A stretch of 6,087 nt of DNA from Escherichia phage alpha3. Of the stretch, positions 1 through 6,087 are shown piece by piece (position 1 is the first letter of the stretch; every line of letters begins with the position of its first letter). Below the pieces are notes generated by a model. It was not told the origin of the DNA and ran no database searches. It saw only the letters and a program-made list of their open reading frames with translations. The stretch lies in the sequence record NC_001330.1, one strand, 5' to 3'. The translations under genes and the position numbers were made by a program.

Positions 1-26
1 TTGTTGACATTCCCTAAACCCTTATG

Positions 27-65
27 AGACTCTTGCTTCAACGAAACGAAGTAGGAGTCTTTTTT
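27..65 (+). terminator. Candidate stem-loop plus T-run immediately downstream of gene H (across the circular junction)
   Basis: Seen in sequence: 27-39 (agactcttgcttc) pairs with 48-60 (gaagtaggagtct), a 13-bp stem including 2 G-U pairs, with an 8-nt loop (40-47) followed by TTTTT (61-65). The stem is AU-rich, so it is probably weak. The right arm contains the AGGAG ribosome-binding site of the ORF starting at 66. Confidence 0.3.
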
Positions 66-209
66 ATGAAACCAGCTCATCGCCTCTATCATCCTGTGCT
101 TGGTTCTTGGTTGTTTAAGTGCCCCGTTTATGTTCGTTATGAGTCCCTTCATCACGGTCGCCTCATTAAGGTTCGTGCTGTTCGTGACCTTTCCCGCGTC
201 AGCAGTTGA
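66..209 (+). CDS. Hypothetical small basic protein (47 aa; 61 aa if the upstream in-frame ATG at 24 is used), H-A region ORF1
   Basis: ATG at 66 preceded by AGGAG (53-57) with an 8-nt spacer. Product MKPAHRLYHPVLGSWLFKCPVYVRYESLHHGRLIKVRAVRDLSRVSS is rich in R/K/H. About half the codons end in T (hand count ~25/47), matching the bias of the known genes. Stop TGA 207-209 overlaps the TTG at 206 of the next ORF. No homolog recognised. Confidence 0.4.
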   Translation: MKPAHRLYHPVLGSWLFKCPVYVRYESLHHGRLIKVRAVRDLSRVSS

Positions 210-433
210 TTGCCAATCCTAAAAATTGCTTTGACGTTGTCATTGCTGAGATTGACGTTACTCACCTTTCTGTCACTTGGTATGATTTTGAAGCTGAAGA
301 GTATGCTGAGTGTGATTCCGGCACTATGGAGCTTGTTGTTTCTCAGGTAAATTCTGGCGAGGTTATTCGCTCATCTGAAGACCTGTTTGTTGATGTTGAT
401 GATATGGAATGGCCTTATGAAATTGCGGAGTAA
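206..433 (+). CDS. Hypothetical acidic protein (75 aa from TTG 206; 35 aa if it starts at ATG 326), H-A region ORF2
   Basis: Open frame from TTG 206 (TTGA overlap with the ORF1 stop) to TAA 431-433. Product is strongly acidic (many D/E, e.g. DLFVDVDDMEWPYEIAE). Frame-specific T-ending codons are about 41/75 by hand count, versus about 10/41 in the +1 frame of the same stretch. No clear ribosome-binding site before 206 or 326, so the start is uncertain and translation may be coupled to ORF1. Confidence 0.4.
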   Translation: MIANPKNCFDVVIAEIDVTHLSVTWYDFEAEEYAECDSGTMELVVSQVNSGEVIRSSEDLFVDVDDMEWPYEIAE

Positions 434-436
434 GTC

Positions 437-526
437 ATGGAAACTGTTATCGGAAAATTTATTGCTCTGGCTATTGTTGCTCTTATGCTGTATGGAATTG
501 CCTGTTTGATTCGGAGGTTTCCGTGA
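437..526 (+). CDS. Hypothetical 29-aa hydrophobic peptide (single predicted transmembrane helix), H-A region ORF3
   Basis: ATG 437 preceded by GGAG (427-430) with a 6-nt spacer, 3 nt after the ORF2 stop. Product METVIGKFIALAIVALMLYGIACLIRRFP, stop TGA 524-526. About 15/29 codons end in T. Too short for the supplied ORF track. No homolog recognised. Confidence 0.35.
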   Translation: METVIGKFIALAIVALMLYGIACLIRRFP

Positions 527-699
527 AATATTTTAGTTTGGTAGATGAACATTATGCTTACTGCCCTGATACAAGGATTTTGCACATTACTCGTAGTCGT
601 GTTTCTGACCCTCGGTATGAGCGTCGCTTTCTTACTGATGAGGAGCATTTTGCACTTTTGGATTGGTTAAAAAATCGCCCAACTTACATTAATTCTTGA
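523..699 (+). CDS. Hypothetical 58-aa protein with GTG start, H-A region ORF4
   Basis: GTG 523-525 overlaps the ORF3 stop (GTGA) and is preceded by GGAGG (513-517) with a 5-nt spacer. Product (M)KYFSLVDEHYAYCPDTRILHITRSRVSDPRYERRFLTDEEHFALLDWLKNRPTYINS. About 33/58 codons end in T. Stop TGA 697-699 lies inside the -35 hexamer of the gene A promoter. Not in the supplied ORF track. Confidence 0.4.
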   Translation: MKYFSLVDEHYAYCPDTRILHITRSRVSDPRYERRFLTDEEHFALLDWLKNRPTYINS

Positions 700-725
700 C
701 AGACCTTTAAAATACCCTCTATATT
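696..725 (+). promoter_or_regulatory. Sigma70-type promoter for gene A (pA analog)
   Basis: Perfect -35 TTGACA (696-701), 18-nt spacer, -10 TATATT (720-725), about 35 nt upstream of the A start codon. Position matches pA in the phiX174 H-A spacer. Predicted start site around 732-733. Confidence 0.6.
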
Positions 726-755
726 GCCCTCATAGTTTCACTACGAGGGCTTTTT
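726..755 (+). terminator. Rho-independent terminator-like hairpin in the H-A spacer / gene A leader (TH analog)
   Basis: GCCCTC (726-731) pairs with GAGGGC (745-750); an inner 3-bp helix 733-735/741-743 is possible; followed by TTTTT (751-755). The right arm contains the gene A ribosome-binding site GAGGG (745-749). Confidence 0.5.
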
Positions 756-758
756 CGC

Positions 759-2243
759 ATGGCTACTGAAATCTTCTCTGATGTTGTTAAGTCTGTTTGG
801 TCGCACGCTACGGCTAAGCATGCTCATCTTCGTATGGCTGTTCAGGTTGATAATCGTAGTCGCCTCCTTTCTGACCTCGTTTATCAGTTGGAAAAACGCC
901 TTTCTGAAGAGACTCATTTGGATGATGAGACTCTTGCCATTTATGAATCTCAGACTGCCCTTCTGGAAGACCATATGGCACTGGTTCGGAAGTGTGCTGC
1001 CCAACTTGATAATAGTAACACTATAGACCACCGTACCCCTTTGGATGCCGAATGTGTTTTCCTGTTTGAAATGATTTGCCCGGGTGTTCGCTACGGTAAA
1101 ACGTTAAATTCTCTTTGGACTAAGTATGTTGTTCAATGGCCTGAGAAGTTAATCCGTCAGGAGTTAGACATGGTTAAGCCTTTATCCTTTAAGGATGAGG
1201 TTGCCAAGTACATGGAGAAGATGCAGGAAAAAACACGCAAAAATCGCATGACTCAGAAAGTTATTAATGAGATGCGTATTGCTCACCAAAAAGGCTGGTT
1301 CTTCGTATTTGATACGTTAACCCTTGCTGATGACCGTTTGCAGGCTTTTAATGAAAACCCCAATGCTCTTCGTGATTATTTCAGGACTGTTGGTCGAGCT
1401 GTTCTGCGCGCTGAAGGTCGTTCGGTCAAGGATTCCTACAACGACTGCTATCGCTATCTTTGTGTGCCGGAGTTTGGAGGTCAGCACGGCCGTCTTCATT
1501 GGCACGTTGTGCATATGGTGCGGACTCTTCCTTTGGGAAGTCATGACCCTAATTTCGGTCGCAAGGTACGTAATTATCGCCAGATTAACTCGTTCCGTGG
1601 CATGTGGCCTTATGGCTTCACGCAACCGATAGCTGTTCGCTATCAACATGACGCTTATTCCCGCAAAGGTTGGCTGTGGCCTGTTGACAAAACAGGAAAA
1701 GCAATGCAGAGTAAGCCGTATCAGGCGGTCGCATGGTATGTGACCAAGTATGTAGCCAAGCAATCTGACCAGCGTCAGAAAGCTATTACCGAGAGACAAA
1801 AGAAATGCAAGAATCCATTAATGGCAATCTGTCTGAAGAAAGAATTTCGGGTACGCAGCAGTCGGAAACTCGGAATGGAGCTCCCGTCAATGGCTCATCT
1901 GAGCAACAAGGTACTTCTGGAACTGAGCCGAATCAGCTTCGATTCCAGTCCTCTGTATCAGATAGTGAAAGAGAACGCCAAAAAGCAATTGACCTTGAAC
2001 ATCGGCGCGCTGCCTTTGCACGTCATTTTGGATGTGCGCCCGGAAGTGAGAAGCATGTTGAAAACTATTCGTCGTTTGATGAAAAAGACACCCGAGTTCA
2101 ATTGGCAGAGTTCTATCGCTTCAATGACGGTCACTTTAAAAAATGGGGATATTTCTGATGAAGCACGTCAATACATTATTGATGCAGGAATTACGCCTAC
2201 TGATTTGCGAGCTAAAGCGACTCAGACTTTCGGCGGTAAGTGA
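759..2243 (+). CDS. A: Replication initiation protein A (rolling-circle nickase/ligase), 494 aa
   Basis: Strong similarity to phiX174 protein A as recalled (FVFDTLTLADDRL, NPNALRDYFR, CVPEFG..GRLHWH, and the active-site tyrosine pair in YVTKYVAK). GAGGG ribosome-binding site 9 nt upstream. The in-frame stop at 708-710 excludes a longer N-terminus. Contains gene B, the (+) origin and the start of K. Confidence 0.93.
   Translation: MATEIFSDVVKSVWSHATAKHAHLRMAVQVDNRSRLLSDLVYQLEKRLSEETHLDDETLAIYESQTALLEDHMALVRKCAAQLDNSNTIDHRTPLDAECVFLFEMICPGVRYGKTLNSLWTKYVVQWPEKLIRQELDMVKPLSFKDEVAKYMEKMQEKTRKNRMTQKVINEMRIAHQKGWFFVFDTLTLADDRLQAFNENPNALRDYFRTVGRAVLRAEGRSVKDSYNDCYRYLCVPEFGGQHGRLHWHVVHMVRTLPLGSHDPNFGRKVRNYRQINSFRGMWPYGFTQPIAVRYQHDAYSRKGWLWPVDKTGKAMQSKPYQAVAWYVTKYVAKQSDQRQKAITERQKKCKNPLMAICLKKEFRVRSSRKLGMELPSMAHLSNKVLLELSRISFDSSPLYQIVKENAKKQLTLNIGALPLHVILDVRPEVRSMLKTIRRLMKKTPEFNWQSSIASMTVTLKNGDISDEARQYIIDAGITPTDLRAKATQTFGGK
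1002..1031 (+). other. Viral-strand (+) origin of rolling-circle replication, 30-bp protein A recognition/nick site
   Basis: CAACTTGATAATAGTAACACTATAGACCAC matches the phiX174 origin (CAACTTG/ATATTAATAACACTATAGACCAC as I recall it) apart from a few changes in the AT-rich centre. Predicted nick between G1008 and A1009. It encodes AQLDNSNTIDH of protein A. Confidence 0.8.
1221..2243 (+). CDS. A*: A* (internal in-frame restart product of gene A); start codon uncertain (ATG 1212, 1221 or 1248)
   Basis: By alignment the phiX174 A* start (MKSRRGFAIQ) falls on EKTRKNRMTQ here. The nearest in-frame ATG is 1221, with GGAG at 1214-1217 but only a 3-nt spacer. ATG 1248 has no ribosome-binding site. Confidence 0.3.
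   Translation: MQEKTRKNRMTQKVINEMRIAHQKGWFFVFDTLTLADDRLQAFNENPNALRDYFRTVGRAVLRAEGRSVKDSYNDCYRYLCVPEFGGQHGRLHWHVVHMVRTLPLGSHDPNFGRKVRNYRQINSFRGMWPYGFTQPIAVRYQHDAYSRKGWLWPVDKTGKAMQSKPYQAVAWYVTKYVAKQSDQRQKAITERQKKCKNPLMAICLKKEFRVRSSRKLGMELPSMAHLSNKVLLELSRISFDSSPLYQIVKENAKKQLTLNIGALPLHVILDVRPEVRSMLKTIRRLMKKTPEFNWQSSIASMTVTLKNGDISDEARQYIIDAGITPTDLRAKATQTFGGK
1805..2158 (+). CDS. B: Internal scaffolding protein B, 117 aa, encoded inside gene A in another frame
   Basis: Acidic/Q-rich N-terminus and a C-terminus QLAEFYRFNDGHFKKWGYF that matches phiX174 B (PAEFYRFHDAEVNTFGYF). Stop TGA 2156-2158 overlaps the K start. Confidence 0.9.
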   Translation: MQESINGNLSEERISGTQQSETRNGAPVNGSSEQQGTSGTEPNQLRFQSSVSDSERERQKAIDLEHRRAAFARHFGCAPGSEKHVENYSSFDEKDTRVQLAEFYRFNDGHFKKWGYF

Positions 2244-3035: not shown

Positions 3036-3054
3036 GGGCCCTTCGGGGCCTTTT
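3036..3054 (+). terminator. J-F intergenic hairpin with UUCG tetraloop plus T-run (TJ-like terminator / RNA stability element)
   Basis: GGCCC (3037-3041), TTCG loop, GGGCC (3046-3050), with a flanking G-U pair 3036/3051, then TTTT (3051-3054). Confidence 0.5.
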
Positions 3055-3066
3055 AAGGAAATTCAA

Positions 3067-4362
3067 ATGTCTAATGTACAAACTTCCGCTGAACGTGAAA
3101 TTGTTGACCTCTCTCATCTTGCCTTTGACTGTGGCATGCTTGGTCGTCTGAAGACTGTTTCATGGACTCCTGTTATCGCTGGCGATTCCTTTGAGCTTGA
3201 TGCTGTTGGTGCTTTGCGTCTTTCCCCTCTGCGTCGTGGTTTAGCTATTGATTCTAAGGTTGATTTTTTCACCTTCTACATTCCGCATCGTCATGTTTAT
3301 GGCGACCAGTGGATTCAGTTTATGCGTGATGGTGTTAATGCTCAGCCTCTGCCTTCTGTTACTTGCAATCGCTATCCGGACCATGCTGGTTATGTAGGTA
3401 CTATTGTTCCTGCAAATAACCGTATTCCTAAGTTTTTGCATCAGAGCTATCTGAACATTTACAATAACTATTTCCGTGCCCCGTGGATGCCTGAGCGTAC
3501 CGAGGCCAACCCGTCTAATCTTAATGAGGATGATGCTCGTTATCGCTTCCGTTGCTGCCACCTTAAAAATATTTGGTCTGCTCCGCTGCCTCCGGAAACC
3601 AAATTGGCTGAAGAAATGGGTATTGAAAGCAATTCCATTGATATTATGGGTTTGCAAGCCGCTTATGCGCAGCTTCACACTGAGCAGGAGCGTACTTACT
3701 TTATGCAGCGTTACCGTGATGTTATCTCCAGCTTTGGCGGTTCAACCTCCTATGATGCCGATAACCGACCGTTGCTTGTTATGCACACCGACTTCTGGGC
3801 TTCCGGTTACGACGTTGACGGTACCGACCAATCTTCCCTTGGACAATTCTCTGGTCGAGTCCAGCAGACGTTTAAACACTCAGTGCCGCGATTCTTCGTG
3901 CCTGAGCATGGTGTCATGATGACTTTGGCTCTGATTCGCTTCCCGCCTATCAGTCCGTTGGAGCACCATTATCTTGCTGGTAAGTCTCAGTTAACCTATA
4001 CCGACCTTGCTGGCGACCCGGCTCTGATTGGTAACTTGCCTCCTCGCGAGATTAGTTATCGAGATCTGTTCCGTGATGGTCGTTCTGGTATTAAGATTAA
4101 AGTTGCCGAGTCTATTTGGTATCGTACTCATCCTGATTACGTTAACTTTAAGTATCATGATTTGCATGGATTCCCGTTCCTTGATGATGCGCCTGGTACA
4201 TCTACTGGTGATAATCTTCAGGAAGCTATCCTTGTTCGTCATCAGGACTATGATGCTTGCTTCCAGTCTCAGCAGTTGCTACAGTGGAACAAACAGGCTC
4301 GCTATAACGTTAGTGTTTATCGCCATATGCCTACTGTACGTGATTCCATTATGACCTCTTAA
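3067..4362 (+). CDS. F: Major capsid protein F, 431 aa
   Basis: Extensive similarity to phiX174 F (MSN.QT.AER...DLSHL.F..G..GRL.T...TPVIAGDSFE.DAVGALRLSPLRRGLAIDS.VD.FTFY.PHRHVYG...QLLQWN...RDSIMTS). AAGGA (3055-3059) with a 7-nt spacer. The upstream in-frame ATG 3034 used by the track lies inside the hairpin and is not the start. Confidence 0.95.
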   Translation: MSNVQTSAEREIVDLSHLAFDCGMLGRLKTVSWTPVIAGDSFELDAVGALRLSPLRRGLAIDSKVDFFTFYIPHRHVYGDQWIQFMRDGVNAQPLPSVTCNRYPDHAGYVGTIVPANNRIPKFLHQSYLNIYNNYFRAPWMPERTEANPSNLNEDDARYRFRCCHLKNIWSAPLPPETKLAEEMGIESNSIDIMGLQAAYAQLHTEQERTYFMQRYRDVISSFGGSTSYDADNRPLLVMHTDFWASGYDVDGTDQSSLGQFSGRVQQTFKHSVPRFFVPEHGVMMTLALIRFPPISPLEHHYLAGKSQLTYTDLAGDPALIGNLPPREISYRDLFRDGRSGIKIKVAESIWYRTHPDYVNFKYHDLHGFPFLDDAPGTSTGDNLQEAILVRHQDYDACFQSQQLLQWNKQARYNVSVYRHMPTVRDSIMTS

Positions 4363-4367
4363 TTCAT

Positions 4368-4383
4368 GGGCCTTCGGGCCTTT
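4368..4383 (+). terminator. F-G intergenic hairpin with UUCG tetraloop plus T-run (TF-like)
   Basis: GGCC (4369-4372), TTCG loop, GGCC (4377-4380), then TTT. Near-duplicate of the J-F module. Confidence 0.45.
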
Positions 4384-4959: not shown

Positions 4960-4984
4960 AAGGCTGCCGCACTCCCGGTTAGAT

Positions 4985-5069
4985 GCCTGCCCAGTGTAGG
5001 GCAGACCGAGCCGTACGGAGATACCCGATAAACTAGGAACGTGGAAGGCGTTAGCCGCCTTCCCTCCTG
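4985..5069 (+). other. Putative complementary (-) strand origin: primase (DnaG) recognition region in the G-H spacer
   Basis: The 135-nt G-H spacer contains a 6-bp hairpin CTGCCC/GGGCAG (4987-5004, loop AGTGTA), the palindrome CCGTACGG (5011-5018), and an 8-bp hairpin GGAAGGCG/CGCCTTCC (5043-5063, loop TTAGC) followed 4 nt later by CTG (5067-5069). G4-type origins are hairpins with a 5'-CTG-3' primer start on their 3' side. Confidence 0.45.
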
Positions 5070-5094
5070 CTAAGCCCAAAAAGGAGTTACAGCG

Positions 5095-6087
5095 ATGTTA
5101 GGTGCCGTTGTTGGTGGCATTGCCTCAGCCTTAGCTAGTGGTGCCGCTTCGAAATTATTTGGAGGCTCTCAGCGTGGAGTTTCTGTTATGCAGCAAGGTG
5201 CCGAGTCTGCCGGATTGACTAACGGCGGCGGCGCCATTTCTATGGATAATGACCAAGGTATTCAGTCTGCTATTCAAGGCTCGAATGTTCCTCCTGCTGG
5301 TCAGCTTCCTGAGTCTCAGAACTCTGGTGTTATGGCTGATGCTGGTAACATGCTTCGTAATGCTGGAAAGTCTTTGCTTGACGGAACTATTCAGGCTGGT
5401 TCTGATAAAGTTAAGCAAGCACTTATTGATAAGTTGATTGGAGGTAATGATGCTAAAGACCGAGGAAAGGCAACCCGCGATTACTTGGCTGCGGCCTTCC
5501 CTGAGCTCAACCCATGGGAACGTGCTGGAGCTGGTGCTTCCACTGCCGGGTTAGAATCTTCTGCTCAGAATCAGCAGAAAGAGATGCTGAAGATGCAATT
5601 GGATAATCAGAAAGATATTGCAAAAATGCAGATGGATAACAATTTGCAGATTGCTGGTATTCAGTCTGCCACTTCTCGTCAAAATACGAAGGATTCTGTT
5701 TATGCCCAGAATGAGATGCTTCAGTATAATCAACGTGAGTCGCAGGCACGCGTTGCGTCTATCCTCGCCAACACTGACCTCACGACTAAACAGGCTACCC
5801 ATGAAATCATGAGGATGGCCCTTACCCGTGCTCAGGAGACTGGTCAGCATTTGACTAACTCTCAGATTATGGCTTTGGAGAAAAAGGTCTATGCAGAAAT
5901 TGGAAAAATTCATCAAGATACTCAAAACTCTCGCTATGGTAGCTCTCAAGTTACTGCCGCTGCGAAAGATGTTACGAATATGATTACCGATGCCGCTTCA
6001 GGTGCTTCTGATTGGGTTTCTCAGCAGTGGAATTCGTTCTTTAAGGATGGTAAGTCCAACGGTATTTCCCTTAATACCAGAAAATAA
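5095..6087 (+). CDS. H: Minor spike / DNA pilot protein H, 330 aa
   Basis: Glycine-rich hydrophobic N-terminus MLGAVVGGIASALASGAASKLFGG (phiX174 H: MFGAIAGGIASALAGGAMSKLFGG), a conserved central block (RDYLAAAFPEL, IAGIQSATSRQNTKD, VYAQNEML) and the C-terminus KDGKSNGISLNTRK. AAGGAG (5081-5086) with an 8-nt spacer. The stop is the last codon of the window. Confidence 0.95.
   Translation: MLGAVVGGIASALASGAASKLFGGSQRGVSVMQQGAESAGLTNGGGAISMDNDQGIQSAIQGSNVPPAGQLPESQNSGVMADAGNMLRNAGKSLLDGTIQAGSDKVKQALIDKLIGGNDAKDRGKATRDYLAAAFPELNPWERAGAGASTAGLESSAQNQQKEMLKMQLDNQKDIAKMQMDNNLQIAGIQSATSRQNTKDSVYAQNEMLQYNQRESQARVASILANTDLTTKQATHEIMRMALTRAQETGQHLTNSQIMALEKKVYAEIGKIHQDTQNSRYGSSQVTAAAKDVTNMITDAASGASDWVSQQWNSFFKDGKSNGISLNTRK

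Follow-up and report, generated by a model that had tools for sequence, protein, structure and literature searches.

The hairpin after gene H of phage α3, a probable counterpart of the terminator, promoter and ribosome-binding site composite of φX174 and G4

Positions 1–68 of the genome of Escherichia phage alpha3 (α3, record NC_001330.1) contain an RNA hairpin that is followed by a run of six T and lies between gene H's stop codon and an open reading frame (ORF1) that is usually not annotated. The window analyzed is the complete circular genome of 6087 nucleotides (nt), linearized directly after the gene H stop. This segment is probably the α3 counterpart of a composite element in φX174 and G4 that joins the terminator T_H, the promoter pA and the ribosome-binding site (RBS) of the next gene, and it would serve as a partial terminator, a 3' stabilizer and a mask over the RBS. 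In the late F-G-H transcripts, the hairpin at 26–61 and its U-run would stop a large fraction of polymerases by Rho-independent termination. The terminated late mRNAs would keep a 3' hairpin that protects them, and on read-through RNA the Shine-Dalgarno (SD) sequence of ORF1 would stay locked in the stem. As a result, a cassette of three genes would be insulated from late expression. α3 is a coliphage of the Microviridae (Bullavirinae, Alphatrevirus). The parts of the element are listed below.

Positions 4–9, + strand: TTGACA, a perfect hexamer of the -35 type, as far past the H stop as the -35 of G4 pA
Positions 10–21, + strand: spacer, variable at every position among relatives and constant in length
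Positions 25–33, + strand: TG (25–26), A and GACTCT (28–33), a candidate weak extended -10 in the hairpin 5' arm, at the position of the G4 -10
Positions 26–39, + strand: hairpin 5' arm, untranslated, its lower part (27–34) nearly invariant
Positions 40–47, + strand: hairpin loop, AACGAAAC, variable among relatives
Positions 48–61, + strand: hairpin 3' arm
Positions 53–57, + strand: AGGAG, the SD sequence of ORF1, annotated as an RBS in record M25640 and paired with C30–U34
Positions 60–65, + strand: run of six T, candidate terminator U-tract and spacer between SD and ATG, the least conserved part among relatives

The hairpin and its counterparts in φX174 and G4

Over its first 800 nt, the window matches the resequenced α3 genome (DQ085810.2) at 99.6% identity and, across a 586-nt overlap, the 1989 α3 gene H record, M25640, at 100%. 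The gene H stop, TAA, is at 6085–6087. On the circular genome the hairpin sits between this stop and the ATG at 66; it begins 26 nt past the stop, on the + strand, downstream of the transcription unit. A27–C39 pairs with G48–U60 to form 13 base pairs (bp), including U33·G54 and G35·U52. A first-pass annotation, made from the sequence alone, had described this 13-bp stem with two G-U pairs and an 8-nt loop, and the description is borne out; G26·U61 adds a 14th pair, giving a stem of 26–39 with 48–61 and a loop of 8 nt (A40–C47). The run of T before ATG 66 that it had noted is also present, but it consists of six T at 60–65 and not five at 61–65, and the ATG (66–68) follows immediately.

The predicted minimum free energy (MFE) of the hairpin RNA is -20.1 kcal/mol. 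Dinucleotide shuffles give -7.2 ± 2.0 kcal/mol (z = -6.5), and none of 200 shuffled sequences is as stable. A consensus terminator scan of the whole window gives the hairpin as the sole strong terminator-like match on the + strand. It is second in stability among all 6087 overlapping 45-nt segments of the + strand (mean -7.0, standard deviation 3.4), first among the non-coding segments and alone among the top-ranking ones in having a T-run after it. The structure is specific to the sense RNA, with fold energies of -20.1 kcal/mol for the sense RNA, -11.8 kcal/mol for the complement RNA and -7.2 kcal/mol for the + strand as DNA (z = -2.9). The fold is weak as DNA because three of the pairs are G·U (G·T in DNA). 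Three characters of an intrinsic terminator are present in the α3 sequence: a stable stem loop, a U-rich tract directly 3' to it and a location downstream of a transcription unit. The earlier view that the hairpin is terminator-like, and that expression of the downstream ORF is thereby in question, is right. A search of Rfam with window positions 1–900 matched no RNA family, even at E <= 1.

The H-A gap of φX174 is 63 nt (3918–3980) and consists of TAA, 10 nt, TTGACA, 17 nt, TTTCAT, a hairpin (GCCTCCAA-ATC-TTGGAGGC), six T and the ATG of gene A. Of the four Rho-independent terminators of φX174, one, T_H, is located in this gap; it is reported to block ~70% of transcription, with a net change over pA-T_H of 0.29-fold (bioRxiv 10.1101/2020.03.05.979765). 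The efficiency of T_H has also been quoted as ~90% (PMC11527146). The α3 element resembles φX174 T_H/pA in its location directly after the H stop, the perfect TTGACA, a hairpin with the SD sequence of the next gene in the 3' arm, the six T and the ATG. From the 3' arm through the ATG, α3 GGAGTCTTTTTTATG and φX174 GGAGGCTTTTTTATG are identical at 14 of 15 positions. The α3 stem exceeds that of φX174 in length (14 vs 8 bp) and in stability; upstream, it covers the place of the -10 hexamer. The gene that follows the element is ORF1, unlike in φX174, where it is gene A; in α3, gene A begins at 759 and is preceded by another copy of the module, which φX174 does not have. The first-pass annotation had set termination with a separate cassette promoter against leaky read-through. 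This is a false choice, as T_H of φX174 is a partial terminator that overlaps pA.

The G4 sequence after gene H consists of TAA, 3 nt, TTGACT (4–9), 18 nt, TAATAT (28–33), a hairpin (34–53) with GGAGG in the 3' arm, TTTT, C and ATG. α3 and G4 have the -35 at 4–9, the -10 position at 28–33 and the 18-nt spacer at identical coordinates, and they share the SD sequence in the 3' arm and the 8-nt loop. G4 has a good -10 (TAATAT) that lies outside a short 6-bp hairpin and has just four T, whereas GACTCT of α3 is inside the 14-bp hairpin, which is followed by six T. Because the next gene is ORF1 and gene A is behind the second copy, the α3 element is not a "gene A leader"; it is an apparent ortholog or paralog of the Bullavirinae post-H module. 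Taken alone, the hairpin would extend the known φX174 T_H terminator to the α3 group, and the duplicated module and the unannotated cassette are by-products of more interest than the hairpin itself.

Conservation, Shine-Dalgarno masking and alternative explanations

Conservation was assessed in 21 distinct versions of the element, taken from 13 GenBank isolates and from metagenomic genomes. In each of the 21, the hairpin has an energy between -14 and -21 kcal/mol, and AGGAG is part of its 3' arm. Each of the 12 columns of the spacer (10–21) is variable, and the distance from TTGAC(A/T) to GACTCT is 18 nt in every version. The -35 box is variable at one of six columns (p = 7e-4 against the spacer) and the lower 5' arm (27–34) at one of eight (p = 1e-4), as determined by Fisher tests on column variability that are crude and ignore phylogeny. 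TTGAC(A/T) is found in all 21 versions, GACTCT is invariant in the same 21 and TG (25–26) is present in 20.

The lower stem shows conservation of pairing across the 21 versions, with 94.9% of alignment cells paired and two pairs altered on both sides. Slid registers of the alignment fall to 42–58% paired. The covariation score is 0.187 vs 0.068 in shuffles, with none of 500 shuffles reaching it, but one or two events account for the compensatory changes, and the conserved arms served as anchors for the trimmed alignment. Double-sided covariation is absent among the 15 closer genomes, and the signal appears only after divergent metagenomic lineages are added. In one lineage of metagenomic α3-like genomes, L032–L035, the upper stem and loop are swapped for an unrelated insert of ~31 nt. 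Two pairs adjacent to the junction, G·U and C-G, have become U-A and G-C (or G·U), and pairing is thus restored where the upper stem has been replaced. ORF1 of L032–L035 (1201–1665; 689–1153 in L033) also has a 32-residue insertion right after the first three codons (MKP), which gives a protein of 154 amino acids. Both the ORF1 insertion and the replaced upper stem and loop adjoin the conserved junction of lower stem, SD sequence and ATGAAACC.

The SD sequence of ORF1 is part of the stem. Record M25640 annotates a ribosome-binding site at its positions 1253–1257, which is AGGAG at window positions 53–57, in the 3' arm and 8 nt 5' of ATG 66; the overlap of hairpin and RBS had been recognized in the first reading of the sequence. 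AGGAG is fully paired with C30–U34. Partition function calculations give a cost of 14.0 kcal/mol for exposing AGGAG on RNA that reads through from H vs 2.7 kcal/mol on RNA that starts at 36–44. The corresponding values are 9.8 (read-through) vs 4.1 kcal/mol (annotated start) for the gene A SD sequence of φX174, and 11.7 (read-through) vs 3.8 kcal/mol (start at 732) for that of α3. The α3 element would therefore resemble φX174 in that its SD sequence is masked on read-through RNA and free on RNA that starts inside the hairpin. The proposal that ORF1 translation is gated by hairpin melting understated the predicted block (~14 vs ~2.7 kcal/mol).

By analogy with other RBS hairpins, 14 kcal/mol would represent an almost closed gate for ORF1 translation, and not a dimmer. 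A quantitative relation between the stability of an RBS hairpin and translation was reportedly established by de Smit and van Duin. The coat-gene initiation hairpin of the RNA phage MS2 is a translational operator that sequesters the SD sequence. In such operators, as in α3, the SD sequence is wholly inside a stable stem, and translation should consequently drop steeply with rising stem stability. Unlike the MS2-type operators, the α3 element has no evident regulator protein or coupling partner, and the proposed relief of the block would come from an alternative transcript 5' end and not from the action of a ribosome or protein.

The conserved TT(A/G)TG (22–26) can pair with AUGA(A) at the ORF1 start codon (66–69) across the T-run, which lengthens the helix. 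This extension belongs to the MFE structure in NC3, NC28 and a genome from dog faeces, and the A24G change preserves the pairing as G·U. The pairing may also sequester the ORF1 start codon.

Several points, in addition to the limits of the covariation given above, weigh against a composite that acts as a terminator. The stem is just moderately G+C-rich, with G-C pairs at 5 of 14 positions. No part of the element is less conserved than the U-tract, which about half of the 21 versions have in interrupted or shortened form. α3 and roughly half of the versions have the tail TCTTTTTT, and T5–T6 is present in about half. Interrupted tails are found in ID21/ID32 (TCTTTGCTT, TTTGCTT), WA13/WA45 (TCTTTATT, TTTATT) and NC28 (TCTTTATC, TTTATC); phiK has TCTTTT with just four T, and the run is lost in L032/L033 (TCTCTC), where the hairpin is still -18 kcal/mol. 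Since the SD pairing is fixed and the U-tract is variable, selection may act most strongly on something other than termination. Part of the invariance of the 5' arm could be due to a role at the DNA level or in a promoter and not to pairing. In the literature searched, no RNA-end data were found for α3 or α3-like phages, and nothing was found on α3 transcription or on the H-A region of α3-like phages, although an earlier mention of the hairpin is possible. The G4 counterpart has TTTT-C, so that some variation in the T-run appears normal in Bullavirinae post-H elements; the φX174-like clade, at least 95% identical, is too uniform to calibrate this variability.

These data bear on a different explanation, that the hairpin is mainly a translational mask or insulator, with incidental or weak termination and with selection acting on the pairing of CUCUU (30–34) with AGGAG (53–57). 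ORF1 would then be silent on late polycistronic RNA, and the T-run would be mostly an A/U-rich spacer between SD and ATG, possibly an S1 ribosome standby site. This explanation fits the conservation pattern best, as the SD-pairing lower stem is invariant and the T-run is the most variable part, being absent in L032/L033. The 14 kcal/mol needed to open the SD sequence and the extension of the helix by 22–26 over the start codon in some relatives are also in its favor. However, a textbook hairpin with T5–T6 occurs in α3 and in about half of the versions, and the homologous φX174 hairpin is a measured terminator (bioRxiv 10.1101/2020.03.05.979765; PMC11527146). A mask with little termination is a minority prospect that deserves weight but is rather unlikely. 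Masking and termination are compatible, and neither role excludes the other.

A role at the DNA level is improbable. In this case the target of a limiting host replication factor would be the TTGTTGAC box or the hairpin, or the hairpin would act as a structure in single-stranded viral DNA. The conservation of TTGTTGAC has no proven explanation, and the φX174 H-A region was once proposed to bind a limiting host replication factor; substitutions in that region during experimental evolution exceed chance, some of them in parallel across experiments (PMC3606162). Those substitutions, however, also hit the terminator signal (PMC3606162). In addition, the α3 hairpin is weak as DNA (-7.2 kcal/mol, z = -2.9), the sense RNA folds much better than the complement, and the exchanges among G·U, G-C and A-U obey the pairing rules of RNA. 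It is more improbable still, to the point of being barely tenable, that copy 1 is a non-functional remnant in which just the SD sequence and ATG are in use, left decaying by the duplication that brought in the cassette. The change at the -10 position from a TAATAT-like sequence (as in G4) to GACTCT and the eroding T-run in several lineages have the appearance of decay. Yet the untranslated 5' arm should then drift like the spacer, and it varies at one of eight columns vs 12 of 12; pairing is restored after upper-stem replacement, and hairpin stability is kept in 21/21 versions. A terminator, promoter and RBS composite is the explanation we favor.

A possible promoter in the 5' arm and the second copy of the module

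The promoter component of the proposed composite is less secure than its hairpin. By analogy with φX174, a weak promoter (TTGACA, 18 nt, TG-n-GACTCT) may start transcripts at ~A40, which is possible but doubtful. A fixed -35 and a fixed spacing over a spacer that is free to vary would be promoter-like. TG at 25–26 is in the extended -10 position, and the predicted start at ~A40 is the first loop base, in parallel with φX174. The φX174 RefSeq record annotates the pA transcription start at 3962, the seventh base of the 8-nt 5' arm of the hairpin (3956–3974). The pA transcript thus holds two of the eight 5'-arm bases and, we infer, cannot form the T_H hairpin. A modeling paper treats φX174 pA transcripts as subject to T_H, contrary to this (PMC11527146). 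Transcripts of α3 that start at A40 would lack the 5' arm and would escape both termination and RBS masking.

Three points argue against an internal promoter. A consensus promoter scan of the window detects no -10 for TTGACA 4–9, GACTCT (28–33) matches the -10 consensus at two of six positions, and the invariance of GACTCT may be equally explained by its pairing with the SD sequence. The first-pass annotation had likewise dismissed TTGACA 4–9 as lacking a usable -10. The scan agrees with it, but the dismissal is unsafe: the same scan also misses the mapped φX174 pA, so that a negative scan at this site carries little weight, and the coordinates are identical to those of G4. GACTCT retains A at position 2 and T at position 6, the two most critical bases of the consensus. 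A sigma-32-type promoter reading of TTGACA...CCCTTAT was rejected by eye, as the spacing is far too short.

The α3 genome has a second copy of the module before gene A, and the three cassette ORFs are located between the two copies.

Positions 696–761, + strand: second module copy, with TTGACA (696–701), an 18-nt spacer, TATATT (720–725), a hairpin (726–750), T5 (751–755) and ATG 759

The order of parts is identical in modules 1 and 2, which resemble each other even in the bases that precede the -35 (AATAATTGTTGACA vs ATTAATTCTTGACA). In a consensus scan, the copy 2 promoter matches at 11 of 12 positions and is the best promoter-like site in the genome. The copy 2 hairpin (726–750) is bulged, with an energy of -14.2 kcal/mol, and its 3' arm has GAGGG (745–749), the SD sequence of gene A. 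Compensatory changes are found among relatives, from CATAG/CTACG to CAAAG/CTTTG. The stronger hairpin and the poorer -10 belong to module 1, the weaker hairpin and a near-consensus promoter to module 2. These differences suggest that the modules divided labor after duplication. The predicted start of copy 2 is at ~A732, just past the 5' arm, and the gene A SD sequence is accordingly predicted to be masked when the RNA reads through and accessible when the RNA comes from the promoter.

The phage NC35 (L007, 640–771) has a natural 29-nt deletion (α3 703–731) that removes the spacer, -10 and 5' hairpin arm of module 2. The consensus promoter scan finds no promoter left between H and A in NC35. 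The deletion creates TTGACA, 17 nt and GACTTT directly before the gene A start, an arrangement that resembles copy 1. Without a consensus promoter, the essential gene A of NC35 would be fed by transcription through the cassette or by a makeshift promoter.

It is conceivable, and we put it forward tentatively, that the cassette is flanked by a duplicated pA/T_H module of which copy 1 became a strong terminator and RBS lock, with ORF1, an orphan with a novel-looking predicted fold, made only from a promoter in the 5' arm of the terminator. If so, one element of 60 nt would keep an RBS closed on late RNA and open that RBS on RNA of its own. The cassette lies between the strongest terminator-like hairpin of the genome and the gene A promoter, with its first RBS locked in that hairpin, and the balance of read-through and starts within the hairpin would decide when and how much of the cassette proteins is made. 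A design rule for the family is possible, where a hairpin terminates the upstream RNA and masks the next RBS, and a local promoter starts inside it and escapes both. This rule is drawn by analogy from one annotated start (φX174) and from predicted starts.

The cassette genes and other hairpins of the genome

The genes that adjoin the element are as follows.

Positions 5095–6087, + strand: gene H (minor spike / pilot protein), from the list of open reading frames; the H coding sequence in M25640 ends directly before window position 1
Positions 66–434 in resequenced α3 (66–433 in the window), + strand: ORF1, 122 codons, under purifying selection, in α3-like microviruses only
Positions 437–526, + strand: ORF2, 29 codons, hydrophobic, kept in all relatives and present in metagenome gene calls
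Positions 523–699, + strand: ORF3, 58 codons, strongly conserved and present in metagenome gene calls

In the window ORF1 is split. ATG 66 opens an ORF of 47 codons (66–209), which is followed by one of 75 codons in another frame (206–433). Compared with DQ085810.2, the window lacks one C from a C-run near 192, which causes the split, and has G/C substitutions at 335 and 338; the missing C and the differences at 335 and 338 are probably errors in the older sequence. Resequenced α3 and 12 further relatives all have the intact ORF1 of 122 codons (13 of 13 genomes). The St-1 record shows ORF1 split in a similar way. The first-pass annotation missed both the known T_H-type element and the 122-codon ORF1 that is split by 1 nt.

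ORF1 and ORF3 are real coding sequence. The variable columns of ORF1 are distributed by codon position as 43/34/96, and the median ratios of nonsynonymous to synonymous substitution rates (dN/dS) are 0.18 for ORF1, 0.23 for ORF2 and 0.08 for ORF3. In the record of phage Lilleven, the three are entered as hypothetical proteins, and gene calls made independently on metagenome contigs include them as well. Annotation of the three is absent from the Rokyta-series, St-1, phiK and resequenced α3 records; the gene list of a 2026 publication on an α3-like phage has A-K alone, with no cassette ORFs (PMC13029530). The α3-like phages serve as models in experimental evolution and are candidates for phage therapy, and most records and recent papers omit the three conserved H-A genes.

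Relatives of ORF1 are confined to microvirus contigs of ~6 kb. The three cassette proteins gave no credible match in Pfam, PHROGs, NCBIfam or PADLOC, and no similarity was found between any of them and protein A or anything in φX174 or G4. The possibility that ORF1 represents a displaced N-terminal piece of protein A was rejected, as it has no similarity to the A proteins or genomes of these two phages. The AlphaFold model of ORF1 is confident, with a predicted local distance difference test (pLDDT) value of 89.5 and a predicted template modeling (pTM) score of 0.81; no neighbor of the model was found in the PDB. An upstream in-frame start at ATG 24, which would give an ORF of 61 amino acids, was also rejected. 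It has no SD sequence, the codon is ATT in phiK and GTG in L025, L032–L035 and L040, and insertions and deletions in the loop and T-run throw the frame off ATG 66 in many relatives.

Other hairpins are present in the intergenic regions of the genome. The G-H intergenic region (4960–5094) is a long non-coding stretch with several strong hairpins and no T-run, e.g., at 5043–5063 (GGAAGGCG...CGCCTTCC) and around 4985–5005. α3, St-1 and phiK presumably have a complementary-strand origin of the G4 type that is dependent on primase, which may lie in 4960–5094. After gene J, at 3037–3055, there is a short GC-rich hairpin, GGGCCCTTCGGGGCC, followed by TTTT, and after gene F, at 4368–4383, a short GC-rich hairpin, GGGCCTTCGGGCC, followed by TTT. 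With T-runs this short, neither was picked up by the consensus terminator scan. These two hairpins are likely the counterparts of φX174 T_J and T_F.

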